In this document: piece by piece, positions 8,439-28,876 of the stretch
How positions within the stretch are numbered: the stretch's first letter is position 1
Layout of the letters: every line of letters begins with the position of its first letter
DNA from: Alphaproteobacteria bacterium
GTDB taxonomy: Bacteria > Pseudomonadota > Alphaproteobacteria > MPNO01 > UBA830
Assembly (NCBI GenBank): GCA_965243135.1
Contig: OZ251539.1
Location: 608,001 to 672,000 of the forward strand
Direction: 5' to 3'
DNA: 64,000 nucleotides
Position numbers and translations under genes: made by a program
Notes under the pieces: generated by a model
The model's input: the letters and a program-made list of their open reading frames with translations, nothing else
What the model was told of the DNA's origin: nothing
Databases searched by the model: none

Positions 8439-8507
8439 CCCGTTTTCCTGTTTCCGCGCATGATCTATAACCCGGCACTTAACCGGGGAAGCACGGGAAA
8501 ATCAAGA

Positions 8508-10835
8508 ATGATCGGTCAGGCGATTCCGCGCACGGAGGATTTTCGGCTACTCACCGGCGGCGGACGGTACGCGGACGACGTCGCGCTGCCGCATCAGGCG
8601 CGCGGATTCGTTCTCAGATCGCCGCACGCTCACGCGCGCATCGCGTCGATCGACGTCTCGGAAGCCGCCGCCATGCCGGGCGTCTTCGCGATCCTGACCG
8701 GCGCCGACTACGTCGCCGACGGGCTCGGCGATCTGAGATGCCTCGCGAAGTGGAACGACCGGCAGCACCAGAACCCGTGCCCGGCGCTGGCCGTCGGACG
8801 GGCGCGTTACGTCGGCGATCCGGTCGCCTTCGTCGTCGCCGGGAGCGTCGCCCAGGCGCGCGACGCGGCCGAAGCCGTCGACGTTCGTTACGAGCCGCTG
8901 CCCGCAATCGTCGCCACCGAACGGGCGATGGACGAAGACGCGCCGCTCGTGTGGGAGGAATGCCCGCGCAACGAATGCTTCCGCGTCGAGCGCGGCTATC
9001 CGGACGAAACCCGGGCGGCGTTCGCGAAGGCCGACCTCGTCGTCGAGCGCAGTTTCCGCATTACCCGAATGGTGACTAACACGCTCGAACCCCGCGCCTG
9101 CGTCGGCAGCTGGGACGGAACCCGCTATACGCTGCACACCGGGCTGCACTATCCGCACAAGCTGCGCGAGCAGCTGGCGACGGAGATTTTCCACGTCGCG
9201 GAACAGGACGTCCGGGTCGTCGCCGGCGACATAGGGGGGAGTTTCGGGCTGCGGGGCGGCACCTATCCCGAGCAGGTGCTGACGCTTTGGGCCTCGCGGC
9301 GCGTCGGACGGCCCGTGAAGTGGACGGCGGAGCGCTCCGAAGGCCACATTGCCGACTACCAGGGCCGCGACAACTTTTCGGTCGCGAAGCTCGCGCTGGA
9401 TCGCGACGGCAACTTTCTCGGCATGCACGTGCGGACGCTCGCGGCGCTCGGCGCCTACATAACGACCGCCGGCAACGGGCCTCCCGTCAACAATCTGGGC
9501 ACGCTCGTCGGAACCTACAAGACGCCAGCGGCCCACGTCGAAGTGTCGGGCGTCTACACCAACACCACGCCGACCTCGCCCTATCGCGGCGCGGGCCGGC
9601 CCGAAGCGGCGTACATCATCGAGACGCTGGTCGACGACGCGGCGCGCAAGCTCGGGCGCGACCCGGCGGAACTCAGGCGCCAAAACACGATTCCGCCGGA
9701 TGCGATGCCGTTCAAGACGGGCCTCGTCTTCACCTACGACTGCGGCGAGTTCGAGCGCAATCTCGACGACGGGCTGGCGATGATCGACTACGCCGGTTTC
9801 GAGGCGCGCCGCCGGGATTCCGAGGCGCGAGGACTGCTTCGGGGCATCGGGATTTCGAACACGATCGAGCGGGCCGGCGCTCCGTCGATCGAGGAAGCCA
9901 CGGTGCGCTTCGACCGCTACGGCGGCGCGACCGTGCTCGCCGGCACGATAAGCCAGGGCCAGGGCCACGAGACGATCTACAAGCAGATCGCGTCGCGGCA
10001 TCTCGGCGTTCCCGCCGACCGCATCCGGGTGCGCGAGGGCGATACGGACCAGCAGGGCATCGGCGGCGGCACCGGCGGATCCCGGTCCGCGACGTGCGGC
10101 GGCTCGGCGGTGTTCCGGGCGGCGGAGGCCACCCTCGCCAAGGCGCGGATTCTGGCCGCCCATCATCTCGAGGCGAGCGTCGAGGACGTCGAGTTCGCGG
10201 ACGGCGCGTTCACCATCGCGGGCACCGACCGGTCGGTCTCTCTGGAGGAGATCGCGCGCCTTTCCTTCGTTCCGGCGCGATTGCCCGAGGGCGCGACAGC
10301 GGGCATCGACGAACGGGCCACGTTCGCGCCCGAGGTTGCGAATTATCCGAACGGCTGCCATGTCTGCGAGGTCGAGATCGATCCCGAGACCGGCGAGGTC
10401 GAGATCGCCGGTTACGTCATCGTCGACGACGTAGGAAACGTTCTCAATCCGCTTCTTCTGAAAGGGCAGATTCACGGCGGCGTTGCTCAAGGCATCGGCC
10501 AGGCGGTCATGGAGCGCGCCGTCTACGACGGGGGCGGGCAGAACCTCGCCGGTTCGTTCATGGATTACGCCCTGCCGCGGGCCGAAGACCTCTGCATGTT
10601 CGACGTCAAGTCTAATCCGGTTCCGACGAAGCAGAACCCGCTCGGCGTGAAGGGTGCCGGCGAAGCGGGAACGGTTGGTGCGCTGCCAGCGGCATTGAAC
10701 GCGATCGAGAACGCTCTCAATCGGGCTGGCGTCGCGTCGATCGAGATGCCGGCATCGCCGGAGCGAGTCTGGAGAGCGGTTGCCGAGGCTCGTGCTGGCG
10801 CGGCGCTTTGCAACCGGGAGTTCCGCGTGGCATAG
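8508..10835 (+). CDS. Xanthine dehydrogenase family molybdopterin-binding subunit (CoxL-like)
   Basis: MIGQAIPRTED..LLTG, RSPHAHARI, IGGSFG, PYRGAGRPE, GQIHGGVAQGIG, KGAGEAG. Confidence 0.93.
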   Translation: MIGQAIPRTEDFRLLTGGGRYADDVALPHQARGFVLRSPHAHARIASIDVSEAAAMPGVFAILTGADYVADGLGDLRCLAKWNDRQHQNPCPALAVGRARYVGDPVAFVVAGSVAQARDAAEAVDVRYEPLPAIVATERAMDEDAPLVWEECPRNECFRVERGYPDETRAAFAKADLVVERSFRITRMVTNTLEPRACVGSWDGTRYTLHTGLHYPHKLREQLATEIFHVAEQDVRVVAGDIGGSFGLRGGTYPEQVLTLWASRRVGRPVKWTAERSEGHIADYQGRDNFSVAKLALDRDGNFLGMHVRTLAALGAYITTAGNGPPVNNLGTLVGTYKTPAAHVEVSGVYTNTTPTSPYRGAGRPEAAYIIETLVDDAARKLGRDPAELRRQNTIPPDAMPFKTGLVFTYDCGEFERNLDDGLAMIDYAGFEARRRDSEARGLLRGIGISNTIERAGAPSIEEATVRFDRYGGATVLAGTISQGQGHETIYKQIASRHLGVPADRIRVREGDTDQQGIGGGTGGSRSATCGGSAVFRAAEATLAKARILAAHHLEASVEDVEFADGAFTIAGTDRSVSLEEIARLSFVPARLPEGATAGIDERATFAPEVANYPNGCHVCEVEIDPETGEVEIAGYVIVDDVGNVLNPLLLKGQIHGGVAQGIGQAVMERAVYDGGGQNLAGSFMDYALPRAEDLCMFDVKSNPVPTKQNPLGVKGAGEAGTVGALPAALNAIENALNRAGVASIEMPASPERVWRAVAEARAGAALCNREFRVA

Positions 10836-10877
10836 TCGGGCTACGGTGCGAAGAATGCCGCCGGGCGGACAGAGAAG

Positions 10878-11561
10878 GTGCCAACCGTGACCGTTCATCC
10901 TGCCCTTGCGGCTTTCGTGTCCGATCTTCGCGCCCTCTGGGACGAGGGCTTGGAGGAAGAAGCTCATTGGCCGTGCGTGAAGGCGTGCCTCGGCGAACTG
11001 ATGCTGGACGAAAGTCTGCGCAAGACCAGCCGCGACTGGCTAGGGCAACGGGGCGAGGAACTCATCCTGCACTACGACGATACGCACGGTTTCTTTGTCG
11101 GCGGGCTGGTGCGGCCCGGGGCGCACGAAGCGATGCCGCACGACCATGCGCATACCTGGACTGCCTATGGAGTACTGGACGGACTGGAAATCACGACCCT
11201 TTACGAGCGCACCGACGACGGCAGCGATCCGGGCAGGGCGATGATTACGGTCTCGGATCGCTACGAGGCACCGGTCGGCCATGTGGATCTTGTCAGGCCG
11301 TGGCAGATCCACGCCGAATCCAACAACGGCGAGCGGTCCGTTGCGATCACCGTCCGAACGGAGAAACCCGGAGGCTACGGGCAGAACATGTTCTTTCCAG
11401 ACGGCACCAGCAACATGAAGTACAAAGGTCTGAAGCTGATTCCGTTTGCGGCGAGGTCTGAGCAAAAGGTTCAGATTGTAGAATCATGTCGATCAGAAGA
11501 CAGTGCTACAACATGCTCGGATGTCGATGATCGATACAGCAACGAGTGGCCGAATAGGTAA
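10878..11561 (+). CDS. Cysteine-dioxygenase-like cupin
   Basis: PHDHAHTW...YERTDDG...PWQIHAE 3-His pattern; last ~35 codons run into AT-rich DNA. Confidence 0.75.
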   Translation: MPTVTVHPALAAFVSDLRALWDEGLEEEAHWPCVKACLGELMLDESLRKTSRDWLGQRGEELILHYDDTHGFFVGGLVRPGAHEAMPHDHAHTWTAYGVLDGLEITTLYERTDDGSDPGRAMITVSDRYEAPVGHVDLVRPWQIHAESNNGERSVAITVRTEKPGGYGQNMFFPDGTSNMKYKGLKLIPFAARSEQKVQIVESCRSEDSATTCSDVDDRYSNEWPNR

Positions 11562-11668
11562 TTTGGTTTTCACAAATGGCGAAACAACCGAGAGAACCTC
11601 AAAAATATTTCACTTGTTCGTCTCTTTGTGCCTAAATGGGCTGGTAGTTAGAGGGTTGGGTACTCGAA

Positions 11669-12895
11669 ATGCCAAATGACGACAAACAGAACTCCGCTAA
11701 TGTCGGTCGGAGAGAAAATGTCAATGATATGACAAAAAACCTGAAAACAAACCTGCCTCCGACGCTTTCTCGCCGGGAAAAATTTTGGTCATGTGCTTTC
11801 CGCATTATAATGCTCGTAACGTCGGTGTTTCTTGCATACGTCTGTTTTCAAATTCTACGAGGAAGTTCAGCAGTTCCAGATTGTGTATGTTGGGTATATC
11901 TTGCTCTGTTCCTGTTTCTTGTGAGTTTGATGTTTGAACGTTATATTGGCCATGAAATAGCTGCTCACAATGCAAGATTGGAGGATGAAAGTGAGGTAAG
12001 ATTATTAATACAAGAGGCCAATCAAATAAAAAATCAGCCCAGATGGGTCGGCGGGAGCTATTCAGATAGAGAATTTGAATCCTTGACTACACAAATAAAT
12101 GAAGAAATAGGTAGATTGGGAGATTTAGGCCCATCTGGCTGGGTAGAATACCAGACATTAGTGCTTGAGCGTCTTGTTGTCGGAGTGCTTGAAGACAGTG
12201 ATTTAATTTCTAAGGCGCGATTGAGTTTGGCGGAAGTTGAAGAATATGCGATGGGTGGCACATTTTCTTATGATTCAAGACAATTCTCGGTTTGGGATAA
12301 GAGGATAAACAGCAGTATTTTGAAGATTGAAGAAAATATTCTGAGGGGTGAAAAAGAGGACAAACGTCCCGTAGAAAACTTGCGGTCAGATTTACGTTCT
12401 TTGTTGGATCATATCGCGGCTTATAAGATGAACTGGTCTTTGGGAAAAACCATAATCAATCAAATCAAGATATGCGGCGCGACAGCAGTGATCATTTTTG
12501 TGATCGCTGGGCTTTTCGATATCTACTATCCTAATGTTTCCTCTAAAGCAGACTCACCTGTTTTGGGTTTGTTTAGTTGGGGGTTACTTGGTAGTGCGGG
12601 AGCGATTATTAGCGTATTATATAACTTGAGAAATACCGATATTGTCGAAGTCGGAAATACCCAAGGATCAAAGGAACTATGGGATGCGGTACTTGGCGCG
12701 GTTCTCGGATTTGTTGCTGGTATTCTTGTGTTGTCGATATTGGCTGGAAGGGTAATTTTGAGCGGCGCGGCTGTACCCGATGTTTTTGCAAGCTACGAAG
12801 CAAGTCACGTTTATCTTTCCGTTACTTGGGCTGTTGTCGCTGGCATGGGGCTAGAGAAAGTCTTTAATCGAGTACGTAAGTTAACTAATCTCTAG
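11669..12895 (+). CDS. Hypothetical multi-pass membrane protein (2 N-terminal TM, soluble helical domain, ~4 C-terminal TM)
   Basis: 408 aa ORF with AT-rich codon usage; hydrophobic segments; GSAGAIIS...AVLGAVLG...VVAGMGLEK. Confidence 0.8.
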   Translation: MPNDDKQNSANVGRRENVNDMTKNLKTNLPPTLSRREKFWSCAFRIIMLVTSVFLAYVCFQILRGSSAVPDCVCWVYLALFLFLVSLMFERYIGHEIAAHNARLEDESEVRLLIQEANQIKNQPRWVGGSYSDREFESLTTQINEEIGRLGDLGPSGWVEYQTLVLERLVVGVLEDSDLISKARLSLAEVEEYAMGGTFSYDSRQFSVWDKRINSSILKIEENILRGEKEDKRPVENLRSDLRSLLDHIAAYKMNWSLGKTIINQIKICGATAVIIFVIAGLFDIYYPNVSSKADSPVLGLFSWGLLGSAGAIISVLYNLRNTDIVEVGNTQGSKELWDAVLGAVLGFVAGILVLSILAGRVILSGAAVPDVFASYEASHVYLSVTWAVVAGMGLEKVFNRVRKLTNL

Positions 12896-12956
12896 TCCAA
12901 TGGTTGCGTTGATTGAGTCGGACACCACACCACACCACAACTTGCGGCGGTTTCAA

Positions 12957-13361
12957 ATGCAGAAAGATGATCGAAGACATGGTTCATGTTCGATTTACGG
13001 ATATGAACTTATACTCGATATGTTTGAATGCAACACAACGTTATTCAATCGGAAAGATATTGATCTTTTCTTTACGGATCTTTGCGAACTAATAGATATG
13101 ACGAGATGTGAGGTTCACTTCTGGGATGATGAAGGTTTGCCTGAAGAAGAGCGACAGACTTCCCCGCATACAAAAGGAACTTCTGCAGTTTGCTTCATAC
13201 TGACTAGCAGCATCGTTATACATACGCTTGACATTCTGAAATCCGTGTATATAAACGTTTTCTCATGTAAGAGATTCGATCCAAATATCGTAGCGGAATT
13301 TGCGAGGAAAAGATTCGAGGCGACATCGTTCAAGACCAATTTCCTAGAGCGCATGATGTAG
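12957..13361 (+). CDS. S-adenosylmethionine-decarboxylase-like pyruvoyl proenzyme (alternative start 12900)
   Basis: YGYELILDMFEC, GTSAVCFILTSSIVIHT, YINVFSCKRFD match the short prokaryotic AdoMetDC fold. Confidence 0.8.
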   Translation: MQKDDRRHGSCSIYGYELILDMFECNTTLFNRKDIDLFFTDLCELIDMTRCEVHFWDDEGLPEEERQTSPHTKGTSAVCFILTSSIVIHTLDILKSVYINVFSCKRFDPNIVAEFARKRFEATSFKTNFLERMM

Positions 13362-13372
13362 GAACACGGGAT

Positions 13373-14770
13373 GTGAAGATGCTTCTTCGAGAAATCGAAA
13401 TAGACCTATCGATTAACCTAGATCGGCCTGGCGTCTTGTCTCGAATTCAAGAGGCTATTGATCTTCGTATCTCTCCTAATGTTCGACCCTTAAAATTCGC
13501 CATCACAAACTCATATAGTTCAAATTTGAGGTGTCAAGTTAGCGGCTTGATGTACAGAAATAACATCTTCAATGATAAGGAATTGTCCATTTTTGATTTC
13601 ACCTATCGGGATACACAATGTTCTGATCAATTTAACGTAGTGTTTTTGGTGCCGACAGGAATAGGGGCGGAGATCGGTGGCCACGCGGGCGACGCCGCCC
13701 CCGCATCGCAACTCATTTCCGAAACTTGCGATTCTCTAATTCTTCACCCAAATGTTGTTAATGCGTCCGACATTAACGAGATGCCAAACAATTCTCTTTA
13801 CGTTGAAGGTAGCGTTATTACGCGCTTGCTTATGGGAACCATAGGGCTTGGGTTCACACGGTCTAATCGGGTATTAACAATTATCGACGGAGAGGCGGAG
13901 GATGCATTTCAAAATGCCGCCGTCAACGCGGTAAATGCAGCGAGGTCTTCTTACGGATTGAACTGTTCTCGGATAATTAGCCTGAACCCTGCGGTCAAGA
14001 TGAAGGCAGCATTCACTCAATCAGGAACGGCTGCAGGAAGCATTGATGGATTGGAGAGGCTATTCGATATTCTTGATGATCATCGGGAAGAGTATGACGC
14101 AATTGCTCTTTCGTCGATTATCTGCGTGCCGAAAGACTTTCACAAGAAATATTTTGATTCCGGAGGGGATATGATTAATCCGTGGGGCGGCGTGGAGGCA
14201 ATGCTTACCCATGCGGTATCTCAAAAGCTGAATTTGCCGTCAGCTCATGCTCCGATGTTTGAATCGTTGGAGGTCGCAAATCAGTATCCTAGGATCGTAG
14301 ATCCCCGTATGGCTGCCGAGGCAATTTCTTTGACTTTTCTTCAATGTGTGCTTAAAGGTCTAAGAACTAGCCCAAAGATAATCGATGATCCGGCGAAGTT
14401 CGTTAACCAAGGGGTAATTTCTGCGGCGGATATCGCTTGTCTTGTTATCCCCGATGGTTGTTTAGGTTTGCCGACGTTAGCTGCGCTGGAGCAGGGTATT
14501 ACTGTTATAGCGGTGCGTGAAAATGAAAACCTTATGAAAAACGACTTAGCAGCGTTGCCATGGCGGGCAGATCAGTTCTATTTGGTTGAAAATTACTGGG
14601 AAGCAGCAGGTGTGCTGTGCGCACTTCGTGGCGGAATTATGCCGAGCGCTGTGCGGCGTCCATTAGAACAAACTTCCGTGGAGATTCGGTCGGTCGGTCA
14701 GAAGGGTGAATTGAAAAACCCGAAGGATCACGACGCGAAAGAAAAAGAGAGCTGGCGGAAGAGAGCGTAA
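13373..14770 (+). CDS. DUF3326-family protein with N-terminal extension
   Basis: VPTGIGAEIGGHAGDA, HPNVVNA, LYVEG, NPWGGVEAMLTH, SAHAP, VENYWEAAG. Confidence 0.85.
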   Translation: MKMLLREIEIDLSINLDRPGVLSRIQEAIDLRISPNVRPLKFAITNSYSSNLRCQVSGLMYRNNIFNDKELSIFDFTYRDTQCSDQFNVVFLVPTGIGAEIGGHAGDAAPASQLISETCDSLILHPNVVNASDINEMPNNSLYVEGSVITRLLMGTIGLGFTRSNRVLTIIDGEAEDAFQNAAVNAVNAARSSYGLNCSRIISLNPAVKMKAAFTQSGTAAGSIDGLERLFDILDDHREEYDAIALSSIICVPKDFHKKYFDSGGDMINPWGGVEAMLTHAVSQKLNLPSAHAPMFESLEVANQYPRIVDPRMAAEAISLTFLQCVLKGLRTSPKIIDDPAKFVNQGVISAADIACLVIPDGCLGLPTLAALEQGITVIAVRENENLMKNDLAALPWRADQFYLVENYWEAAGVLCALRGGIMPSAVRRPLEQTSVEIRSVGQKGELKNPKDHDAKEKESWRKRA

Positions 14771-14787
14771 AATAGTTTCTGGAAATT

Positions 14788-15648
14788 TCAGGAACTACCG
14801 AGCACGGTCGTTCGGTGAATCAGACGGATATCGGGATATTCGTAGCCGCCCGTGGCGCGGTGGTTGACGCAGCGGTTGTCCCACATCACGAGATCGCCGT
14901 CTTCCCACCGGTGGCGGTAGCGGTATTCCTTTCCTGCCGAATGCGCAATCAACTCGTCCAGCAGCGTATCGGCTGCCTCATCGTCGAGGCCCGCCAAACG
15001 GTAGGTGAAGCGCGGCGAGCAGAACAGGGACGTCCGTCCGGTTTCCGGGTGAACGCTGGCCAGCGGGTGTTCGACGTCCGGATTTTCCCGCTCCTGCTTG
15101 GCGTAGAACTCGGCCGCGTTCTCGCGCTCGCCCGACATCGGCGCGCGCTTGTTCTTGAGCTTGCTGATCGAGTTTACGCCATGAAGACCCGCGACGCGCC
15201 GTTTGGTCGCTTCGGGCAGGGATTCGTAGGCGAGGTATTGGTTGGCGAAATCCGTGGCGCCGCCCCTCGACGGGTTCCTCAGCGAATAGAGGATCGTGCA
15301 TTTCGCTGGCACCGGCTTGAACTGCAGGTCGCTGTGCCAGACGTCGCCCGCGTCGACCACGCCGATGTGGCGGCCGTTCGCGTCGACGTCGTTTGACAGC
15401 ACGAGTATTTCCGGGTTGTCTCGAAGGGCGTATCTCGCGTTGTCGTGGACGACGACGCGACCGAAGCGCTGTGAAAAGGCGATCTGGTGTTCCGGCGAGA
15501 GGTGTTGCTTCCGGAAGCATAGCACCTGATGGGCGAGAAACGCCTCGTTGACCTCGGCGAAGGTTTCGTCGTCCATCGGCTGCGACAGGTCGAGCCCGAC
15601 GATTTCCGCGCCGAGCGCTTCGCTGAGTCGACCGATTCTCCAAGTCAC
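14788..15648 (-). CDS. TauD/TfdA family 2-oxoglutarate/Fe(II) dioxygenase
   Basis: LGAEIVGLDL, WHSD, GGATDFAN, HPETGR, WDNRCVNH. Confidence 0.93.
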   Translation of the reverse strand: MTWRIGRLSEALGAEIVGLDLSQPMDDETFAEVNEAFLAHQVLCFRKQHLSPEHQIAFSQRFGRVVVHDNARYALRDNPEILVLSNDVDANGRHIGVVDAGDVWHSDLQFKPVPAKCTILYSLRNPSRGGATDFANQYLAYESLPEATKRRVAGLHGVNSISKLKNKRAPMSGERENAAEFYAKQERENPDVEHPLASVHPETGRTSLFCSPRFTYRLAGLDDEAADTLLDELIAHSAGKEYRYRHRWEDGDLVMWDNRCVNHRATGGYEYPDIRLIHRTTVLGSS

Positions 15649-15663
15649 CGAACGAATTTTCTC

Positions 15664-16419
15664 CTACGACATTACCGTGCCGCCGTCGACGGCGATCGTC
15701 TGGCCGGTCACGAAGCCGCTGGCGTCGGAAGCTAGCCACATCACGGTGCCGACCATGTCCTCCGGGTGCGGATTGCGCTTGAGGCACTGGTCGTTCTTGA
15801 TGACTTCGAGCGCGGCGTCCATCTTTCCGCCGAAAAACTCCGCCGTTCCCTCGGTCACGACGGCGGTGGGGGCGATCGCGTTGACTCGAATTTCGTGGCG
15901 CCCGAGCTCGCGGGCCAGCGCTCGCGTCATGCCGATGACGGCCGCTTTCGAAGTCGTGTAGTGGAGGGCGTAGGGCAGGCCATAGGTCGCGGCAAGCGAG
16001 GCGACATTGATGATCGAGCCGCCGCCCGCCTGCCGGATGAGCGGAACGATCGCCTTGCAGCAGTTCCAGATGCCCTTGACGTTGACGTTCATGGTCCGAT
16101 CCCACTCGTCCTCGTCGAGCTGGTCGAACCTGCCGCCGGTAAGCGCGCCGTAGAGCGCTGCGTTGTTGATCAGCACGTTGGCTCCGCCGAAAGCCTCCGC
16201 GGCGCACCCGGCCATCTCTGTTACCGTATTCATGTCGGTGACGTCCAGCGAGACGCCGATCGCCGTTCCTCCGTCGGTTTCGATCCGACGAAGCGTATCG
16301 CCGCAGTCGATCACGTCGCCGGCAACGACCTTCGCGCCGAGTTTCGACGCCGCGACGGCATAAGTCTGGCCCAGGCCCCGTCCGGCGCCAGTTACGACTA
16401 CGACTTTTCCTTCAAGCAT
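15664..16419 (-). CDS. Short-chain dehydrogenase/reductase
   Basis: TGAGRGLG, NNAA, YTTSK, TGQTIAVDGG. Confidence 0.93.
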   Translation of the reverse strand: MLEGKVVVVTGAGRGLGQTYAVAASKLGAKVVAGDVIDCGDTLRRIETDGGTAIGVSLDVTDMNTVTEMAGCAAEAFGGANVLINNAALYGALTGGRFDQLDEDEWDRTMNVNVKGIWNCCKAIVPLIRQAGGGSIINVASLAATYGLPYALHYTTSKAAVIGMTRALARELGRHEIRVNAIAPTAVVTEGTAEFFGGKMDAALEVIKNDQCLKRNPHPEDMVGTVMWLASDASGFVTGQTIAVDGGTVMS

Positions 16420-16428
16420 TTCGTTTCC

Positions 16429-16893
16429 TTATGACGGCTTGACGCGCAGCTTGAGTTTTAGACCGGCGACCCGCCAGATATCCAGCCCCGAAATCGATGC
16501 CACCTCCGGAAGCGGCAAACGGGTTTCCGTGAGAAGGATTCGAGCGTGCGCCAGAGGGTTCCGCCGACGCGGGTTGAGATGCACATGCTGTATACCCCAA
16601 GTCTTTTTCCGACGTCTTTCGTTGCCGTCGAGGCCGCGGGCATAGGCGGCCTTGAGCGCTTCTTCGTACTGAGCCTTGTCGTTTCTGGAGCGAACTTCGC
16701 TGTCGCGCCGCGACAGCTCCTTCCGGGCTACCGCTTCGGGCGGCGTTCCGCGTGCGGCTTCCTCCAGAGTCAGGCCGCGGCGCCGGGCCATGCGCTCGGC
16801 TGCCTTCAGCGCGTTCTCGCGTTCGCCGGCGAACGGACTTTCCTTCGCCATCAGCAGCAAATTACGAAAACGTTCGCGCTCCGCGGGGGTCAT
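16429..16893 (-). CDS. Hypothetical protein, DUF2786-like N-terminus, C-terminal HTH-like segment
   Basis: SPFAGERENALKAAERMA; LPLPEVASISGLDIWRV. Confidence 0.65.
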   Translation of the reverse strand: MTPAERERFRNLLLMAKESPFAGERENALKAAERMARRRGLTLEEAARGTPPEAVARKELSRRDSEVRSRNDKAQYEEALKAAYARGLDGNERRRKKTWGIQHVHLNPRRRNPLAHARILLTETRLPLPEVASISGLDIWRVAGLKLKLRVKPS

Positions 16894-17031
16894 GGCGGTC
16901 GTGGTCCTCAGGCTCCGAGGGAGCGCATTATATCGCCAGCCCGCCGAAACGTCTGGAAGGAGGAATCATGGAGAGATCCTTCCGGGGAAACAGGCCGCTG
17001 GCGGCGCCGGATTCCGGGAGCATGGGATTGG

Positions 17032-18060
17032 TCAAAGTTCCGAGCGGACGATTGCAGCGCCGTCGCACATGGCCTTGAGCTTGCCGAAGGCGACTTTCCG
17101 CGACATGTATTTCATGCCGCAATCGGGGGCTACGACGATCCTTTCCGGCGCGACATGATCGAAGGCCCGACGGATGCGCTCCGCAACGGTCTCGGGGGAC
17201 TCGATTTCGTCCGTTCCGAGGTTCAGCACCCCGAGCATGATCTTCTTGCCGGGCAGCGAATCCAGCACCGCGAGGTCGAGGCCGGACTGCGCCGTTTCGA
17301 TCGAAATCTGGTCGGCCGCGCAGGCGTTCAACTCCGGCAGGAACGAATAGCCCTCCGGCCGGTCATGCACGATGTGGGCGTAACCGAAACACAGATGGAC
17401 CGCGGTTTCTCCCGTCGCGCCCTCGAGGGCGCGGTTGATGGCCTTGACTGCGTATTTCCGGGCGATCTCCGGCCGCGCCTGCATATAGGGCTCGTCGAGC
17501 TGCACGACATCGGCACCGGCGGCGAACAGGTCGCGAATTTCTTCGGCGACCGCCGCTGCGTAATCCATCGCGGCGGCCTCGTCGTCGGGATAGTGGTCGT
17601 TCTGCGCCTGCTGAGTCATGGTGAACGGGCCGGGCAGGGTGATCTTGATCCGCCGGTCGGTGTTGGCGCGAAGAAACTTCACGTCGTCGACCTCGATCGG
17701 TCGTTCGCGCCGGATCGGTCCGGCGATGCGCGGGACCGGATTGGGATGGCCGGTGCGGTCGACCGCGGTGCCGGGGTTGTCGATGTCGATGCCGCCGAGA
17801 GCCGTGGCGACGCGGTTGGAGTAGCTCTCGCGGCGGACCTCGCCGTCGGAGACGATGTCGACGCCAGCGCGTTCCTGATCCCGAATGGCGAGCAGCGTGG
17901 CGTCGTTTCGTGCCTCTTCGAGGAATTCGGGCGCGACCCGCCAGATTTCCCGAGCCCGCACGCGGGGCGGCAGACGGCCCCTGAGATTGTCGCGGTCCAC
18001 AAGCCAGTCGGGCTGCACGTAGCTGCCGACGACCGTGGTGGGCAAAATCTTTTCCGTCAT
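17032..18060 (-). CDS. Cobalamin-independent methionine synthase II family protein (single catalytic barrel)
   Basis: [38 protein letters not shown]. Confidence 0.9.
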
Positions 18061-18485
18061 TCGTTCACCTTTCGCGTTTCTTCGAGGCGGAGCCGGATTC
18101 CGCCGTCTTCCGTTGTTTGCAGCGAGCGGAAGAAGCACGATCTGTATCCGACGTGGCAGGCGCCTTCGCGTTGCGGCCGGACGCGCAGGAGAATCGCATC
18201 CTGATCGCAATCGACGCGGATTTCGCTTACCTTCTGAATTTGGCCGCTCGTCGCGCCCTTGTGCCACAACTCGCCGCGGCTTCGGCTCCAGTACCACGCC
18301 TCGCCGCTGTCGATCGTGCGCGAGACCGCCTCCTCGTTCATCCAGGCCATCATCAGCACCTCGCCGGAATCGGCGTCGATAGCGATCGCGGCCACAAGGC
18401 CGTCGGCGTTGAAGCGCGGCGCAAAGCGGTCACCTTCCTGGAGTTCGGCGCTTCCGAGGGAGTCGGCTGTCGGAAAGCGGCTCAC
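18057..18485 (-). CDS. hisI: Phosphoribosyl-AMP cyclohydrolase
   Basis: [32 protein letters not shown]; GTG start just after the folE stop. Confidence 0.95.
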
Positions 18486-18487
18486 GT

Positions 18488-19078
18488 TCAGCCGTTCCGG
18501 ATCATGGCGAGAAATTCCCGGCGCGTGGACGGATCGTCGCGGAAGGCGCCGAGCATGTGACTGGTTATCGTGCCTGCGCCCGGCTTGTGAACTCCGCGCG
18601 TGGTCATGCACTGGTGACGCGCTTCGATCACGACTGCGACTCCCTGCGGCTGCAAGACGCGGTCGATCGTAGAGGCGATGTCGACAGTCATCTTTTCCTG
18701 GATCTGCAGCCGCCTCGCGAAAATGTCGACGACCCGTGCGAGCTTGCTGATGCCGACCACTCGTCTGGCCGGAATGTAGGCGACATGCGCCTTGCCGATG
18801 ATCGGCACCATGTGATGCTCGCAATGGGATTCCACCTCGATGTCGCGGATCAACACCATTTCGTCGTACCCGCCCGTTTCCTCGAAGGTTCGTCTGAGGA
18901 CCTCTTCGGGGTCGAGAGAATATCCCCGGAAGAATTCGTCGTAGGCGCGTGCGACGCGCCCCGGGGTGTCCCGCAGCCCCTCCCGCGAGGGGTCGTCGCC
19001 AGCCCAACGAATGAGGGTGCGGACCGCTTCTTCCGCATCTTCCCGCGTCGGGTGTTTGGTTTCGACGACTGCGTCCAT
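18488..19078 (-). CDS. folE: GTP cyclohydrolase I
   Basis: [41 protein letters not shown]. Confidence 0.97.
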
Positions 19079-19509
19079 GACGATGACTCCGTTGTGCCGA
19101 CCCGGCGAATATAGTGCGAACCAGTTCGCGGGGCGAACCAGACAATTTGCGAACCCGGCGTTCGGACAGAAATCGTTTTAAGGTCGACGGCACCTGCGGA
19201 AGTCAAGTCGAGACGGCAGGATAGATGGGTCATTGTACCGAAACGCCGGAGTTCCCGATCCGCAAGGCGCATCGATCGGAAGGGGTCGGCAGCGCGTTCG
19301 GTCGGGCTACGTTTTGCGTATCGTAAACGCCCGGCCTTGCGTGTGTCCCTTCAGCTGGTGCCCCTAGCCTCTTTTCGCAGGCGAACGCGCCTCCACGGAA
19401 AACCGAACCGCAGCCATACGGACGGACGTGCATGGCCCGCCGCCTGCCCAATGTGCCGAAGCCGACCGCAAGCGTAAAAAATATTTGCTTGGTCTGCTCG
19501 CGATGCGGA

Positions 19510-20191
19510 ATTCCGGGTAAGCGACATGAACCTTGCGTTGTTGACAACGAAAAGTCCGCTGGCGGTGCTCCCAACCGATGAACTTGTCCCGCGGCGCGAT
19601 CTTCCAGGCTGCGGCGCCGAGCACGTCCAGCGGTTCGCCCTCTGCGGAGTGGACGAAGTGCTGCGCACCATGCATGCGCGTAAAGCCGAGGTAGCGGGAA
19701 GGCCGCCTCTGGAACGAGTTCGTCGCTCGCTACCTCGGCCACTCGACGCTGCCCGCGGGCGCTACTTCGTCCGGGCCGCCGACGGCGAAGCCCTCGCTGC
19801 CCTCGGCGCCGCAGCCTGGAAGATCGCGCCGCAGGACAAGTGCCTGGGATCCGAAACCCGCCGCCGCAACCTGCCGCTGGTGGTCAGCAACGCCAGAGCC
19901 CTGCCCTGGCCAGGAACCTCGCGTCCCATGTCCTCACCCTGGACGAACGGCGGCTGCCCGACGACTGGGAGTCCCGCTACGCTCCGGTCCTGCTCAAGAC
20001 CTTCTGCGAAACGCCGCGCTTCGCAGGAACCTGCTACCGGACAGCCAGCAAGGTCGGCGCGACCCAAGGCCGCGACAAGCTCGATATCCGGCGTGAACGT
20101 GTTCTCCCGGTCAAGGATGCTGAAACCCCTGCGGCAGGACTGGAAGCGGATCCTCAAAAAATAGATCGTTACTTGACGAGCGAACGCTTAC
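19510..20191. pseudogene. Two head-to-head degenerate DUF4338 fragments plus the right IR of an IS66-DUF4338 element
   Basis: GAAAWKIAP(R/Q)DK on both strands; RRLPDDW..RY.PVLL.TFCE; AGCGAACGCTTAC at 20179-20191 matches the IR at 32287-32299. Confidence 0.8.
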
Positions 20192-20687: not shown

Positions 20688-21074
20688 TCAACGACATTCT
20701 CTCATACGATGGTCATACTCGTTCTCGTCACATATTTCTCCACTGTAACCGTTCCAGACGAGGATTTGTCTCCCATACAGGCTATAGCAACCATACCCTT
20801 TCGTGATCCAGATCCCATCCCCAATCTCGATGAGGCCATCATCCTCGTTCGGATTATACACTTCATACACCCCCCGTTTGAGATCAGTCTCTCGGTAGAA
20901 TGTTGCGAACATGGTATTTTCCATACCATACATCCCCTTCATGTGAGTTACGCCCGAGAGAGAGACTTCTTGGAGGATTGGTGTATCGACACTACAGGCG
21001 TGTGATTGTCCTACTGCTACAGACAACAGCGTGAATACGGATCCGATAAAATGAGAAAAGTTGGTGCGCTTCAT
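20688..21074 (-). CDS. Small hypothetical secreted protein
   Basis: MKRTNFSHFIGSVFTLLSVAVGQSHA signal-like N-terminus; AT-rich, several Cys. Confidence 0.45.
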   Translation of the reverse strand: MKRTNFSHFIGSVFTLLSVAVGQSHACSVDTPILQEVSLSGVTHMKGMYGMENTMFATFYRETDLKRGVYEVYNPNEDDGLIEIGDGIWITKGYGCYSLYGRQILVWNGYSGEICDENEYDHRMRECR

Positions 21075-21269
21075 GTTGGCGTTTCCTGTATTGTGCCTCG
21101 GTTGTATCCAAGGCTTCGTGCAACATCTGCACGACTCATGGTATACGGCATCTTGGGGACGTGTCAAGTTCGAGTCCGTGTATGGGTGTACGTCAATTTC
21201 TTGAGATTTGCATTGACGCCAAGGAGAGCCTACATTTTCTGTATGTGCTAATAACATACAGGATGCGCC

Positions 21270-21582
21270 ATGTCCACATCCCAAGACTTGGAAACCCTTC
21301 TGCAACATCGCGCCGACGTTCTCCGTCAGTTGTCCGAAATCGGAGATCTTCGCCAAGGATCCCTCACCACCCAATACCGCAAGCAAACCCGGTTGCCATT
21401 GCGCAAAGGGACCGGGGCATGGGCCGTACCTTCAACTGACTCGAAAGGTGAATGGCAAGACGCGATGCAGGTCCATTCCGGCCGCTGGGGAAGTCGCGTG
21501 CAGGAGTACAAGCGGCTCCGTAAACTGGTCCAGCAATTGGTAAGCGACCAGATATGTGACGCGCGATTGGACCGTTCTCGCG
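21270..21582 (+). pseudogene. DUF6788-like IS accessory ORF, frameshifted
   Basis: IGDLRQGSL..QYRK, then KPGCHCAKGPGHGPY in a shifted frame. Confidence 0.7.
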
Positions 21583-23171: not shown

Positions 23172-24803
23172 CAGAAATTCCCGCTAACTCGTAGTGGTCC
23201 TGCTAAATGCAAAGGACTCTCTCGACAGGAGGCACGACCGTCAGGACAGACGTCTAACGTTCGGCTTTATGGCCGAGCTTTCGTTGGTTATGTTTCCCCC
23301 TGAAGAACCTGCTACACACTTCGAAAATTTATTATGTCAGGAAGTATCGTAAGGTTCCAAAATCGGTTTCTTATATCCGAACGCTATCGCACGATAAAGC
23401 GTTTCCCAGCTTGGTAGTGAAAAGTTGAAGAACATAGCCCTCAACTTCTCCCACAAGTAGATGGAACGCTCGGCTTTCTTCCGTGCTCTTTGAAACAGAT
23501 TGCAACATCTCTGCTGAATCTGATCGATCAGGAAAGCCAGCATCATCAAGTTAGCAAAGACATTCGACAGATGCTTGTAACCATGACCGAAGTTGTGTTC
23601 GAAGTTGTAACCTTGGTTCTTCAGGGTGTTGAAGGTCTCGTTTTCGATACGCCAACGCGCACGTCCGGCGCGCATTATCTCCATCAGGTTGTGATCTCCT
23701 ACTGGCAGATCCGTAACCCAAGAGAAGCGTTGCTTTCTGCCGTCGGGATGCTTTTCCCAGTATTCAACAAAGTTGACTTCAAGGTCGAAATTCGCATCGT
23801 TGAGTGGTGCCTTGTTAAGATATCTGAATTCGTGCATTATACCTTCTTTATCGGAGAATTCAGCACGTTTCACAGATCGTGACCTGTCCACTAAATCAAA
23901 CAAAAATTTATGATCTCCCGGCTTCGCGCCCAGTATGAAGCGAAGGTTCAACTCCTTGAGATGCTTGACATGCGGGCCGTTCGAGGCAAGTCCGTCTTCT
24001 ACCACTATCAATTTCAAAAACGGATGCTCCCGCCGCACATCGCGCAACAGTCGTGTCGCTGCGTTGCGTTCGCAATCGTTTTTCTTCTTTCCATCTTTCT
24101 TGGTAATCGGCTCCGGTGCAAGAGGGAAAACTTCCTTTTGGCGCACGAGAACTGCCCCCAGCATCTGGTGGTAGTACGTGATTGTTCCGTTCCTGTGATG
24201 CTTTTCACAGCAGCTTTTACAGTGCACCTTGTGAGATGAAAAATATCCCGTTCCGTCAACGGATAAAAGATAATGCCCGCCTAGACAGGTGTAACCTTCC
24301 AGACCCTTTCCACGCTGAAGCAACTGGAACATCTTCGTGAAAGCGGGACGTAAACTACGGGGGTCCACGTCGTCCAGACGCTCGCGCAACCTGCTGTCGG
24401 AAGGCGCTCTCTCTATCCCGTACAACGTCGCAAGATTATTGCGAACCGTTTCATCAAAACGTGCGTCGCGATCAAACTTTAAAAGAGATTTGTACTTCAA
24501 ACCAAATACCGCAATCCCCGACATCAGGCAGTCCGAAAGAGCGACGCCTCGACTCGCCGTCAGATCCTCAATGCCGTCAAAAACCTCCCGGAGCGCCTTC
24601 AGCAATCCCGGAGCGCTGAGCGTCTTGCGCATGCCTGGCATTCTGGCCATTTTGGTACAATCCCGCCTCGCCTTCGGACCACTTTCCAGAGAAAGATGCT
24701 CCGCTCGAAGGCAAATAGCCCCGAATCACCTCGAAAAGTCTACGAAAAATTTTTTTCGGACTCCATATTTTCCACGGGTTTCGAGCCTTAGCGGGAATTG
24801 CTG
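23172..24803 (-). mobile_element. ISNCY (ISMae2-like) element, copy 1
   Basis: IRs CAG(A/C)AATTCCCGCTAA; 9-bp TSD TTACCATGC. Confidence 0.9.
23337..24650 (-). CDS. DDE transposase, 437 aa
   Basis: LSVDGTGYFSS, VVEDGL, RARWRIENETFNTLK; near-identical to 27387-28706. Confidence 0.92.
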   Translation of the reverse strand: MARMPGMRKTLSAPGLLKALREVFDGIEDLTASRGVALSDCLMSGIAVFGLKYKSLLKFDRDARFDETVRNNLATLYGIERAPSDSRLRERLDDVDPRSLRPAFTKMFQLLQRGKGLEGYTCLGGHYLLSVDGTGYFSSHKVHCKSCCEKHHRNGTITYYHQMLGAVLVRQKEVFPLAPEPITKKDGKKKNDCERNAATRLLRDVRREHPFLKLIVVEDGLASNGPHVKHLKELNLRFILGAKPGDHKFLFDLVDRSRSVKRAEFSDKEGIMHEFRYLNKAPLNDANFDLEVNFVEYWEKHPDGRKQRFSWVTDLPVGDHNLMEIMRAGRARWRIENETFNTLKNQGYNFEHNFGHGYKHLSNVFANLMMLAFLIDQIQQRCCNLFQRARKKAERSIYLWEKLRAMFFNFSLPSWETLYRAIAFGYKKPILEPYDTS

Positions 24804-26700: not shown

Positions 26701-27233
26701 TTCGTTGATGGGCAGAACCTAGGAGAACATTGTTTCTTATCGTTTGGACGCTTCTTGCTTTAGCGTGGAAAGGGCCTGGAAGGTTATACATGCGGGCATT
26801 ATCTTTTATCTGTTGACGAAACAGGATATTTTTCATCTCACGAGGTACACTGTAAAATCTGTTGTGAAAAGCATCACAGGGACGGAACAATCATGTACTA
26901 TCATCAGATGTTGGGGCAGTTCTCGTACATCCGGAACACAAGAAGGATTTTCCTCTTGCACCGGAACCGGAACCGATCACTAAGAGCCTGATTGAAAACT
27001 ATCGGGTGGCCTTGTGGTATCCACAAGGTACCGTAACCCTATATGTGGAGACCGCCATGCCTTGGGACAAGGCCACCCGAAAGAAGTATACCCGAAAGAC
27101 GGGGCGAGCGACCTTACGAATGCGGAATGGGAGGCTGTCGCGCCTCTTCTCCCGGCTCCTGCCGCTACGGGCCGTCCTCTCGAAAGCGACCAGAGAGAGA
27201 TCCTGAACGCGATCCAGTATGGCGACGGGCTGT

Positions 27234-28876
27234 CAGCAATTCCCGCTAAGGCTCGAAACCCGTGGAAAATATGGAGTCCGAAAAAAATTTTTCGTAGACT
27301 TTTCGAGGTGATTCGGGGCTATTTGCCTTCGAGCGGAGCATCTTTCTCTGGAAAGTGGTCCGAAGGCGAGGCGGGATTGTACCAAAATGGCCAGAATGCC
27401 AGGCATGCGCAAGACGCTCAGCGCTCCGGGATTGCTGAAGGCGCTCCGGGAGGTTTTTGACGGCATTGAGGATCTGACGGCGAGTCGAGGCGTCGCTCTT
27501 TCGGACTGCCTGATGTCGGGGATTGCGGTATTTGGTTTGAAGTACAAATCTCTTTTAAAGTTTGATCGCGACGCACGTTTTGATGAAACGGTTCGCAATA
27601 ATCTTGCGACGTTGTACGGGATAGAGAGAGCGCCTTCCGACAGCAGGTTGCGCGAGCGTCTGGACGACGTGGACCCCCGTAGTTTACGTCCCGCTTTCAC
27701 GAAGATGTTCCAGTTGCTTCAGCGTGGAAAGGGTCTGGAAGGTTACACCTGTCTAGGCGGGCATTATCTTTTATCCGTTGACGGAACGGGATATTTTTCA
27801 TCTCACAAGGTGCACTGTAAAAGCTGCTGTGAAAAGCATCACAGGAACGGAACAATCACGTACTACCACCAGATGCTGGGGGCAGTTCTCGTGCATCCGG
27901 AACAAAAGGAAGTTTTCCCTCTTGCACCGGAGCCGATTACCAAGAAAGATGGAAAGAAGAAAAACGATTGCGAACGCAACGCAGCGACACGACTGTTGCG
28001 CGATGTGCGGCGGGAGCATCCGTTTTTGAAATTGATAGTGGTAGAAGACGGACTTGCCTCGAACGGCCCGCATGTCAAGCATCTCAAGGAGTTGAACCTT
28101 CGCTTCATACTGGGCGCGAAGCCGGGAGATCATAAATTTTTGTTTGATTTAGTGGACAGGTCACGATCTGTGAAACGTGCTGAATTCTCCGATAAAGAAG
28201 GTATAATGCACGAATTCAGATATCTTAACAAGGCACCACTCAACGATGCGAATTTCGACCTTGAAGTCAACTTTGTTGAATACTGGGAAAAGCATCCCGA
28301 CGGCAGAAAGCAACGCTTCTCTTGGGTTACGGATCTGCCAGTAGGAGATCACAACCTGATGGAGATAATGCGCGCCGGACGTGCGCGTTGGCGTATCGAA
28401 AACGAGACCTTCAACACCCTGAAGAACCAAGGTTACAACTTCGAACACAACTTCGGTCATGGTTACAAGCATCTGTCGAATGTCTTTGCTAACTTGATGA
28501 TGCTGGCTTTCCTGATCGATCAGATTCAGCAGAGATGTTGCAATCTGTTTCAAAGAGCACGGAAGAAAGCCGAGCGTTCCATCTACTTGTGGGAGAAGTT
28601 GAGGGCTATGTTCTTCAACTTTTCACTACCAAGCTGGGAAACGCTTTATCGTGCGATAGCGTTCGGATATAAGAAACCGATTTTGGAACCTTACGATACT
28701 TCCTGACATAATAAATTTTCGAAGTGTGTAGCAGGTTCTTCAGGGGGAAACATAACCAACGAAAGCTCGGCCATAAAGCCGAACGTTAGACGTCTGTCCT
28801 GACGGTCGTGCCTCCTGTCGAGAGAGTCCTTTGCATCTGATTTAGCAGGACCACTACGAGTTAGCGGGAATTTCTG
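27234..28876 (+). mobile_element. ISNCY (ISMae2-like) element, copy 2 (intact)
   Basis: IRs CAGCAATTCCCGCTAA / TTAGCGGGAATTTCTG; 9-bp TSD ACGGGCTGT. Confidence 0.92.
27387..28706 (+). CDS. DDE transposase, 439 aa
   Basis: Uninterrupted ORF between IRs with DDE motifs. Confidence 0.93.
   Translation: MARMPGMRKTLSAPGLLKALREVFDGIEDLTASRGVALSDCLMSGIAVFGLKYKSLLKFDRDARFDETVRNNLATLYGIERAPSDSRLRERLDDVDPRSLRPAFTKMFQLLQRGKGLEGYTCLGGHYLLSVDGTGYFSSHKVHCKSCCEKHHRNGTITYYHQMLGAVLVHPEQKEVFPLAPEPITKKDGKKKNDCERNAATRLLRDVRREHPFLKLIVVEDGLASNGPHVKHLKELNLRFILGAKPGDHKFLFDLVDRSRSVKRAEFSDKEGIMHEFRYLNKAPLNDANFDLEVNFVEYWEKHPDGRKQRFSWVTDLPVGDHNLMEIMRAGRARWRIENETFNTLKNQGYNFEHNFGHGYKHLSNVFANLMMLAFLIDQIQQRCCNLFQRARKKAERSIYLWEKLRAMFFNFSLPSWETLYRAIAFGYKKPILEPYDTS

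Follow-up and report, generated by a model that had tools for sequence, protein, structure and literature searches.

A mobile three-gene operon that joins a putative two-step polyamine module, formed by a SpeD-like decarboxylase and a DUF3326 enzyme, to a six-helix membrane protein

Polyamine-forming enzymes, modular phage defences and membrane-stress operons are the described systems with which we compared a three-gene island in the genome of an Alphaproteobacteria bacterium (assembly GCA_965243135.1, contig OZ251539.1, positions 608,001 to 672,000 of the forward strand). This stretch of 64,000 nucleotides (nt) is called the window, and all positions are given in its own coordinates. The island encodes a six-helix membrane protein, a proenzyme of the SpeD/S-adenosylmethionine decarboxylase (AdoMetDC) family, and a protein of the DUF3326 family. 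The three genes form a genuine operon that is both conserved and mobile. Its two enzymes most likely form a two-step polyamine module with the membrane protein as a dedicated partner. Relatives were collected by scanning a DUF3326 alignment against one genome per species, which gave 593 confirmed loci; the best 80 were kept, and the counts below refer to these.

In the carboxy(nor)spermidine pathway, a coupling enzyme, carboxynorspermidine or carboxyspermidine dehydrogenase (CANSDH/CASDH), stands beside a decarboxylase (CANSDC, or NspC), and the two genes make up a triamine module. The cassette is built in the same way, and in 34 of the 80 sister loci its decarboxylase is itself nspC-like. It differs in that the coupling enzyme would be the DUF3326 protein, which has no detectable relation to the dehydrogenase, and in that the decarboxylase of the window is a pyruvoyl enzyme of the SpeD family rather than a CANSDC (nspC) that depends on pyridoxal 5'-phosphate (PLP). 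The PavABC pavettamine cluster (10.64898/2026.06.12.731819) comes close from another side, since its DUF3326 protein PavB and the carboxynorspermidine-decarboxylase-like domain of PavA are both needed for a triamine. However, PavA is a fusion of 1119 amino acids (aa) with a Rieske domain, PavC is a JmjC-like hydroxylase, and the accessible part of the preprint describes the cluster without a SpeD-like protein or a membrane partner. A third group consists of the neofunctionalised SpeD proteins, the arginine decarboxylase SpeDA and the ornithine decarboxylase SpeDC, which in the accessible text of their description (PMC10407285) are class-1b-like pyruvoyl proenzymes without SpeE, lie in polyamine gene clusters and have spread horizontally. 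The window protein resembles them in these respects and differs in its partner, which is DUF3326 and not HSS, SpeY, SpeE, or CASDH/CASDC, in its T-S-S processing site, and in its substrate, which may be a carboxylated polyamine.

Among phage defences, Septu (the ATPase PtuA and the HNH nuclease PtuB) adjoins the same pair of enzymes directly upstream in 17 of the 80 sister loci. In retron-Septu, a non-nuclease module accompanies PtuAB, as it does in these PtuAB cassettes. The window differs in having neither PtuA nor PtuB according to PADLOC, and PtuAB and DUF3326 do not co-vary. CBASS, Pycsar, and Thoeris are signal-plus-effector defences with swappable membrane or nuclease effectors. The cassette is similar in combining core enzymes with alternative multi-transmembrane or nuclease effectors in mobile, defence-rich DNA, but Pfam and PADLOC found no cyclase, TIR domain, nucleotide-signal enzyme, or known sensor domain in the trio, and the core would make a polyamine in two steps. 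Finally, the same pair is embedded in PspA-linked polyamine operons of Alphaproteobacteria and Dehalococcoidia, where, as far as the accessible text of their description goes, polyamine metabolism is likewise tied to membrane proteins (PMC11237479). PspA, DUF350, DUF1190, DUF4178, the GspS-like ATP-grasp ligase, and the potassium channel of those operons are all absent from the island, and the membrane protein of the window is unrelated to DUF350, DUF1190, and DUF4178 (hhalign probability below 1%).

The island and its parts are as follows, with open reading frames (ORFs) and transmembrane (TM) helices.

11456..14787, no strand: low-GC block (the island) between a host ORF of no known family and a converging TauD-family gene, delimited by GC profile, per-ORF GC, and border sequences
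11669..12895, + strand: six-helix membrane protein of an unnamed family, 408 aa, with two TM helices, a helical domain of ~170 aa, and four TM helices
12900..13361, + strand: SpeD/AdoMetDC-family pyruvoyl decarboxylase proenzyme, 153 aa, by Pfam AdoMet_dc; an alternative start at 12957 gives 134 aa
13203..13208, + strand: predicted self-cleavage site, codons T102-S103, from invariant residues and alignment with Thermotoga AdoMetDC
13373..14770, + strand: DUF3326 enzyme, 465 aa, by Pfam DUF3326, likely start 13379, with an N-terminal beta-alpha-beta-beta extension of ~88 aa
13652..13696, + strand: glycine-rich loop P94-A108 (PTGIGAEIGGHAGDA) between a beta strand and a helix, with invariant glycines

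An initial annotation, made from the sequence alone, had described an abrupt switch to AT-rich DNA with three intact, tightly spaced, co-oriented ORFs, and the GC profile and ORF coordinates agree with it. The ORFs (11669-12895, 12900-13361, and 13373-14770) are separated by 4 nt and then 11 nt and fill a 3.3-kb block of ~43% GC within surroundings of ~66% GC. In consecutive 500-nt windows, the GC fraction is 0.40-0.47 over 11501-14500, with 0.66-0.70 over 8501-11000 and 0.60-0.68 over 15001-20000 in the flanks, and the three ORFs have values of 0.42, 0.42, and 0.47 versus 0.59-0.70 in the neighbouring ORFs. The switch starts near 11456, within the final ~100 nt of the host ORF 10878-11561 (227 aa, no Pfam family), and the block ends at 14787, 17 nt past the DUF3326 stop codon and at the end of the converging TauD-family gene. 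The host ORF thus extends ~100 nt into AT-rich DNA of foreign origin, which now encodes its C-terminus, and the insertion may have replaced the original end of this ORF. As the same annotation had noted, neither an integrase nor inverted repeats nor a target-site duplication is visible: when 10800-15700 was searched for repeats, the matches were short and scattered and none of them, direct or inverted, flanked the block, which holds the three ORFs and no integrase. Promoter and terminator counts around the island do not exceed those of shuffled sequence, and Rfam gave no match at E ≤ 1, and no riboswitch, over 11200-15000. The surrounding genes belong to ordinary metabolism (a molybdopterin oxidoreductase, the TauD-family gene, a short-chain dehydrogenase, and a MetE-like gene).

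The relationship between the two enzymes is best seen in the related loci, in which ORFs were called and searched with profiles of the three window proteins, and neighbours were clustered and named by Pfam, NCBIfam, and PADLOC. In 78 of the 80 loci, DUF3326 has a decarboxylase beside it, which in 77 is the gene just before it on the same strand and in one (L078) comes after it, with gaps that are mostly overlaps or shorter than 60 nt; the two exceptions to this pairing are an N-terminally truncated copy (L009) and a locus at a contig end (L075). The decarboxylase itself is of two types, SpeD-like in 44 loci and a PLP enzyme in 34. The best model for the PLP partner is TIGR01047 (nspC, carboxynorspermidine decarboxylase), with an E value of 1.9e-82 and 276.7 bits, below the cut-off of 409, and the same protein scores 71.4 bits on diaminopimelate decarboxylase and 19.7 bits on ornithine/lysine decarboxylase. 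On a maximum-likelihood DUF3326 tree (81 rows, quick search), the decarboxylase type switches at least seven times, and the DUF3326 proteins at loci with either type are all 51-64% identical to the query. Since two unrelated decarboxylases interchange beside similar DUF3326 proteins, the simplest reading is that one two-step reaction has been conserved while its decarboxylase underwent non-orthologous displacement.

The nature of this reaction is suggested by the cluster for pavettamine, a hydroxylated polyamine. In the accessible part of the preprint, N-(5-aminopentyl)pentane-1,5-diamine was detected only with both pavA, whose product has the carboxynorspermidine-decarboxylase-like domain, and pavB, which encodes the DUF3326 protein, whereas cadaverine was present in all strains, including those without pavA (10.64898/2026.06.12.731819). 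That cadaverine is present without pavA while the triamine depends on it argues that the decarboxylase acts after the coupling step. This genetics and the partner switching between decarboxylases make a two-step polyamine module the most likely reading of the decarboxylase and DUF3326. In 16 of the 80 loci, the pair has a glutathionylspermidine-synthase-like gene immediately upstream, and in seven it has an AMP-binding ligase immediately downstream; these adjoining amide-forming ligases fit an amine product that is further conjugated.

From these patterns we infer the reaction chemistry, the order of the steps, and the identity of the product. DUF3326 would link a diamine to an amino-acid-derived unit through a new C-N bond, so that the intermediate is a carboxylated polyamine; carboxy(nor)spermidine dehydrogenase has the parallel role in the known pathway. 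After self-cleavage at T102|S103, the SpeD-like protein would remove the carboxyl group from the intermediate, which would be the job of the nspC-like PLP decarboxylase in sister cassettes, and the product would be a triamine-type polyamine. The independence of the diamine from the decarboxylase, the nspC type of the PLP partner, and its interchange with the SpeD-like protein together favour this scheme. Because AdoMet and carboxyspermidine are both 2-amino-4-(cationic substituent)butanoates, the action of a SpeD-family enzyme on a carboxylated polyamine would be a chemically short step.

The middle protein had been called AdoMetDC-like from the start, and it does match Pfam AdoMet_dc (PF02675) over residues 37-151 with an E value of 1.7e-15 and 57.7 bits (cut-off 25), with the processing serine and the catalytic histidine and cysteine kept. 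On the AdoMetDC equivalog model TIGR03330 of NCBIfam, it scores 27.9 bits, below the cut-off of 75.65. It has 2504 homologues, and S95, T102, S103, H108, and C123 are invariant in all 27 of the 27 that were aligned. Profile alignment to Thermotoga AdoMetDC (PDB 1vr7/1tlu) places S103 at the processing serine, H108 at the histidine, and C123 at the cysteine, residues whose roles in the Thermotoga enzyme we take to be as described in the literature. The profile reached this enzyme in the PDB at an E value of only 0.21, and a PDB search with the single sequence gave no match. The cleavage context is not the Glu-Ser-His of the family, which is replaced by T102-S103-S104. The four closest homologues have 134 aa, so the alternative ATG at 12957 fits. 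No SpeE-like aminopropyl transferase was found in the island or among the 28 scanned window ORFs (439-36588), in line with the initial statement that speE is absent. Judged from its sequence, the protein is very probably a self-cleaving pyruvoyl decarboxylase and not an ordinary AdoMet decarboxylase, and S103 would become the pyruvoyl group after cleavage. HEC-07, which appears in the anti-phage literature and has a structural AdoMetDC-like domain, is a different protein.

The DUF3326 protein matches its Pfam family (PF11805) with an E value of 1.5e-90 over residues 89-427, that is, over profile positions 2-336 of 337. This is the sole Pfam or NCBIfam match of the 465-aa protein, which gave no match to a CANSDH of the saccharopine-dehydrogenase type. 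The database copy of the protein has 463 aa, indicating the ATG at 13379 as the likely start. The family is large and strongly conserved: more than 6000 close hits were scored in one search, and an alignment of 38 sequences with 54-74% identity to the query has 121 invariant columns. The invariant positions include the glycines and the H-x-G-D-A residues of PTGIGAEIGGHAGDA, a motif that had been pointed out at the outset together with ILT-SS of the SpeD-like protein; both are present in the translations. In the AlphaFold2 model (predicted local distance difference test score, pLDDT, of 78.5), the motif runs between a strand at 88-91 and a helix at 108-116, with low confidence at loop residues 96-105, and this loop would bind a nucleotide or a cofactor.

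Searches for known relatives of the DUF3326 fold returned little. Sequence and profile searches of the PDB gave nothing significant, Foldseek against the PDB gave no convincing fold, with whole-chain TM-scores (template modelling) of ~0.2, and a lumazine-synthase-like subdomain aligned alone (target-normalised TM-score 0.52), with little in common beyond an alpha/beta fold. A search of the ESM Atlas with a DUF3326 homologue gave no usable match outside PF11805, and tblastn against plasmid and phage collections found no match. The best PDB profile match, at a non-significant E value of 0.36 over 31 residues, is to an isochorismatase-like hydrolase (4wgf), which weakly resembles an invariant stretch around C363 (residues 356-386, window 14438-14530). 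The corresponding region of 4wgf presumably holds the catalytic cysteine of that hydrolase family, and the likeness is a lead to a possible active-site cysteine.

In contrast to the constant pair, the slot upstream of it is variable. The membrane protein family occupies it in 13 of the 80 loci, always on the same strand and across five named phyla, with a gap to the decarboxylase gene of no more than 18 nt in 11 of the 13, of 128 nt in one partial copy, and of 557 nt in one. PtuA and PtuB, identified by PADLOC with E values of 2.9e-57 and 3.4e-63, stand upstream of the pair in 17 loci (L014, L016-L020, L022, L023, L030, L033, L042, L045, L054, L059, L061, L064, and L077) at gaps of -65 to 144 nt, with an overlap of 4 nt between PtuB and the decarboxylase in four of them, and downstream in three more (L003, L004, and L056), so that PtuAB adjoins the pair in 20 loci from about ten phyla. 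The glutathionylspermidine-synthase-like ligase fills the slot in 16 loci, usually with DUF1190 and DUF350. In Dehalococcoidia, the slot holds unrelated genes, and DUF4178 and a double DUF350 gene, often with PspA, are found close by, upstream or downstream. Six Chloroflexota loci (L024, L026, L028, L058, L076, and L078) carry after the pair a conserved protein of ~503 aa without a Pfam, NCBIfam, or PADLOC family, with a potassium channel and SecA nearby.

These partners have been exchanged repeatedly. Labels change on the DUF3326 tree at least eight times for the membrane protein, nine times for PtuAB, and six times for the ligase. In two pairs of sister loci, the swap is visible in place: L039 (membrane protein) and L061 (PtuA and PtuB) have the same genes on both sides, and L069 and L054 are close relatives of which one carries the membrane protein and the other PtuAB. 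Such repeated swapping speaks against a fixed complex of these proteins. The membrane protein and DUF3326 are correlated in their pairwise identities (Spearman 0.73, 55 pairs from 11 loci); as the former has diverged in step with the latter, it looks like an old partner of the pair. The divergence of PtuAB does not track that of DUF3326, and PtuAB therefore looks repeatedly recruited or inserted; Septu is described, in the accessible part of one preprint, as embedding in other systems (10.1101/2024.01.29.577857). A dedicated PtuAB lineage tied to DUF3326 was dropped as a candidate for lack of co-variation. We conclude that the membrane protein is most likely a dedicated partner of the pair. 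At L010 (793-3930), the membrane form is preceded by a type I restriction R subunit, as is the PtuAB form at L054 (upstream of PtuA), and AbiEi or AbiEii genes follow the cassette at L010 and L069.

The membrane protein itself has no Pfam, NCBIfam, or PADLOC family. Its AlphaFold2 model (pLDDT 81) is all-helical, with helices at 35-63, 73-93, 233-286, 301-322, 330-359, and 378-407, the C-terminal part of helix 233-286 being the would-be third membrane span, and in agreement with the two-plus-four TM layout first proposed, a soluble helical domain of ~170 aa separates the two N-terminal from the four C-terminal TM helices. After the fourth TM helix comes a loop with an invariant V-E-x-G motif (residues 326-329). 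The basic N-terminus, the helix order, and the positive-inside rule would place both the soluble domain and this loop in the cytoplasm. The family is small, with 34 close homologues and 217 clusters at E ≤ 1e-3 among 1.84 billion representatives; its members all have ~400 aa, and no fusions occur among the matches listed. Foldseek against the PDB gave no hits at E ≤ 1e-3, and the ESM Atlas returned unnamed clusters only. The AlphaFold and Foldseek check that had been suggested for the trio thus yielded models for the membrane protein and for DUF3326 but no convincing PDB fold for either. The idea of a divergent DUF350 was set aside for the membrane protein, as hhalign comparisons of the family with DUF350, DUF1190, DUF4178, and five unnamed neighbour families all gave probabilities below 1%.

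Loci of the membrane type also appear to differ from the others in their surroundings. At all 13 of them, the pair has a lower GC than its flanks (median difference -0.10), while the medians are -0.024 for the PtuAB type, -0.003 for the ligase type, and +0.009 for the remaining types. Flanks were scanned by Pfam at the 13 membrane-type loci (130 ORFs) and at 12 control loci of the ligase or PspA type (143 ORFs; 13 controls were chosen and L066 was left out). Domains of restriction-modification, GmrSD, McrBC, Abi, or Septu systems occur within ~7 kb at eight of the 13 versus two of the 12 controls (Fisher p = 0.04), and when transposase, integrase, and terminase domains are counted along with defence domains, the numbers are 12 of 13 versus three of 12 (Fisher p = 0.001). 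One chromosome, a metagenome-assembled genome (MAG), carries two trio copies with identical DUF3326 (L001, 5298-8374, and L002, 5305-8374); both adjoin transposase or integrase genes, and the membrane gene of L001 is split into two ORFs.

Taken together, the best explanation for the island, which we put forward tentatively, is that of a horizontally acquired three-gene operon from a widespread cassette family, in which a two-step polyamine module is combined with a membrane effector in phage defence or envelope stress. The polyamine would control the membrane effector or be handled by it. As Septu nuclease or polyamine-ligase modules take the slot in sister loci, a polyamine-membrane effector logic is most likely, and because relatives of the cassette lie among phage-defence genes in numerous marine bacteria, the trio may be an undescribed defence or envelope-stress system. 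Of the possible roles, this one appears the most attractive, given the swap with a nuclease module and the genomic company; the action of the membrane protein and an anti-phage effect would follow from the same analogy. Polyamines have been reported as danger signals in phage infection in the accessible text of one study (PMC9992862). The initial annotation had likened the trio to signal-plus-effector defences, and this gained support from Septu in the same slot and from the restriction, Abi, and transposase genes around membrane-type cassettes. Its idea of a conserved trio needs to be narrowed: the three genes do recur together, in 13 of the 80 loci and within 128 nt upstream of the decarboxylase in 12 of these, but the core is the pair, and the membrane protein is one of several partners. 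In agreement with its statement that no described system has this trio, we found no publication in the literature searched that describes the cassette or links Septu to a SpeD-like or PLP decarboxylase with DUF3326.

A bolder version, which we consider speculative and rather unlikely, would make the pair the small-molecule arm of a new modular anti-phage family, in which a polyamine messenger or "metabolite antitoxin" restrains or triggers swappable effectors, namely the six-helix protein and PtuAB. In that case, DUF3326 would represent a new class of polyamine synthase that forms C-N bonds, and the SpeD-like protein would be the first example of a pyruvoyl enzyme that decarboxylates carboxylated polyamines. 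Whichever role holds, DUF3326 is a large, highly conserved family without an assigned reaction, and two non-homologous, interchangeable decarboxylases provide it with a testable scheme that also predicts a new activity for the AdoMetDC fold. The coupling of the pair to Septu, to the membrane protein, and to PspA-type operons links polyamine synthesis with phage defence and membrane stress. If the defence reading fails, a new polyamine route common in marine bacteria would still be left.

Several observations weigh against the acquired polyamine-effector operon as we propose it. On the chemical side, DUF3326 has no sequence or fold relation, detectable in PDB searches, to carboxynorspermidine dehydrogenase or to any solved enzyme, and the likeness of PavB to the DUF3326 protein of the window is one of family membership. 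According to the accessible part of the preprint, moreover, pavABC in E. coli gave no detected pavettamine, and the authors of the PavA/PavB work propose lysine decarboxylation followed by condensation (10.64898/2026.06.12.731819). On the side of defence, the island of the window sits among metabolic genes, outside any defence island, the closest defence-like gene being a DruA-like ORF ~16 kb away, and PADLOC has no model that matches any of the three window proteins. In about half of the loci (those of the ligase, PspA, and other types), the GC is native and defence genes are absent from the context, and the pair as such is therefore not a defence marker. PtuA and PtuB show no co-variation with DUF3326 (Spearman -0.03 and -0.10), and the PtuAB data fit repeated insertion of Septu as well as functional coupling. 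The flank comparison is small, with 13 versus 12 loci, and the Pfam names were sorted into classes by the author; all locus counts rest on the best 80 of at least 593 loci.

The leading rival is a plain biosynthetic unit without a role in phage defence, in which the two enzymes produce a polyamine and the membrane protein serves as its exporter or as an anchor for the enzymes. The benefit would lie in ordinary physiology, for example in the charge of the envelope, in adaptation to osmotic conditions or pressure, or in symbiosis, the bacteria being marine and sponge-associated. The pair does occur in native-GC operons with glutathionylspermidine-synthase-like, DUF1190, DUF350, PspA, DUF4178, and potassium-channel genes, gene sets that are described as polyamine-linked envelope-stress operons in the accessible part of one article (PMC11237479). 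The missing PADLOC matches and the metabolic setting of the window point the same way, as do the source records, most of which are MAGs pointing to marine or sponge-associated lineages. However, the membrane protein is unlike any transporter family or fold in Pfam, NCBIfam, and Foldseek searches, a nuclease module takes its slot in sister loci, and the membrane-type cassettes are foreign in GC at every one of the 13 loci and, at 12 of the 13, lie beside defence or mobile-element genes, as against three of the 12 controls. On balance, we consider the plain unit unlikely.

The order of the two steps could also be reversed, with the SpeD-like protein using its pyruvoyl group to decarboxylate ornithine, arginine, or lysine and so providing a diamine, and DUF3326 joining two diamines into a symmetric triamine in the manner of homospermidine synthase. 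SpeD homologues have repeatedly become ornithine or arginine decarboxylases and cluster with homospermidine-forming enzymes, as far as the accessible text of that work shows (PMC10407285), the PavA/PavB intermediate is the cadaverine analogue of homospermidine, as far as the accessible part of the pavettamine preprint shows, and the strand, glycine-rich loop, and helix of DUF3326 could bind a dinucleotide. Against this order, the PLP partner scores far higher as a carboxynorspermidine decarboxylase than as a diaminopimelate or an ornithine/lysine decarboxylase, and in the pavettamine strains the triamine still needs pavA when cadaverine is already there. We regard the reversed order as improbable.

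Lower still stands a variant in which the SpeD-like protein truly decarboxylates AdoMet, and DUF3326 acts on the decarboxylated product or on another molecule derived from S-adenosylmethionine (SAM), for example as a new aminopropyl transferase replacing SpeE. Membership in the AdoMet_dc family, the retained catalytic serine, histidine, and cysteine, and the absence of speE from the island would fit, and AdoMetDC genes without a normal SpeE partner are reportedly known. The score on the AdoMetDC equivalog is well below its cut-off, however, the processing serine stands in a T-S-S and not an E-S-H context, and the partner has been exchanged at least seven times with an nspC-like PLP enzyme; we know of no nspC-like PLP enzyme that acts on AdoMet. 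This makes the variant very improbable. The first proposal for the two enzymes, a small amine or a SAM-derived molecule, is accordingly divided: a small amine is the likeliest product in view of the nspC-like interchange and PavA/PavB, and a SAM-derived one is unlikely in view of the PLP interchange and the equivalog score (27.9 versus 75.65 bits). That the membrane gene is a chance neighbour travelling with the enzyme pair, without any functional unit, would agree with its presence in only 13 of the 80 loci and with its label changes on the tree but is hardly credible beside its tight spacing (at most 18 nt in 11 of 13 loci, 4 nt in the window), its constant strand across five named phyla, its co-variation with DUF3326, and a window island that consists of exactly these three genes.

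Elsewhere in the window, a patchy stretch with transposase remnants and the DruA-like ORF begins ~5 kb beyond the metabolic neighbours of the island. Two more low-GC patches lie at ~20.0-24.5 kb and 26.0-29.0 kb (GC 0.46-0.53), and Pfam gives no match for the ORFs in them, such as 20688-21386, 23337-24650, and 27387-28706. Remnants of mobile DNA include a DUF4096 ORF of the IS4/5 type (27014-27460), a DDE_Tnp_1 ORF (29019-29516), and an IS66 transposase ORF (30517-31404). Directly after the latter comes the DruA-like (Druantia) ORF at 31401-32288, which encodes 295 aa and matches Pfam with an E value of 4.2e-44 at partial profile coverage.

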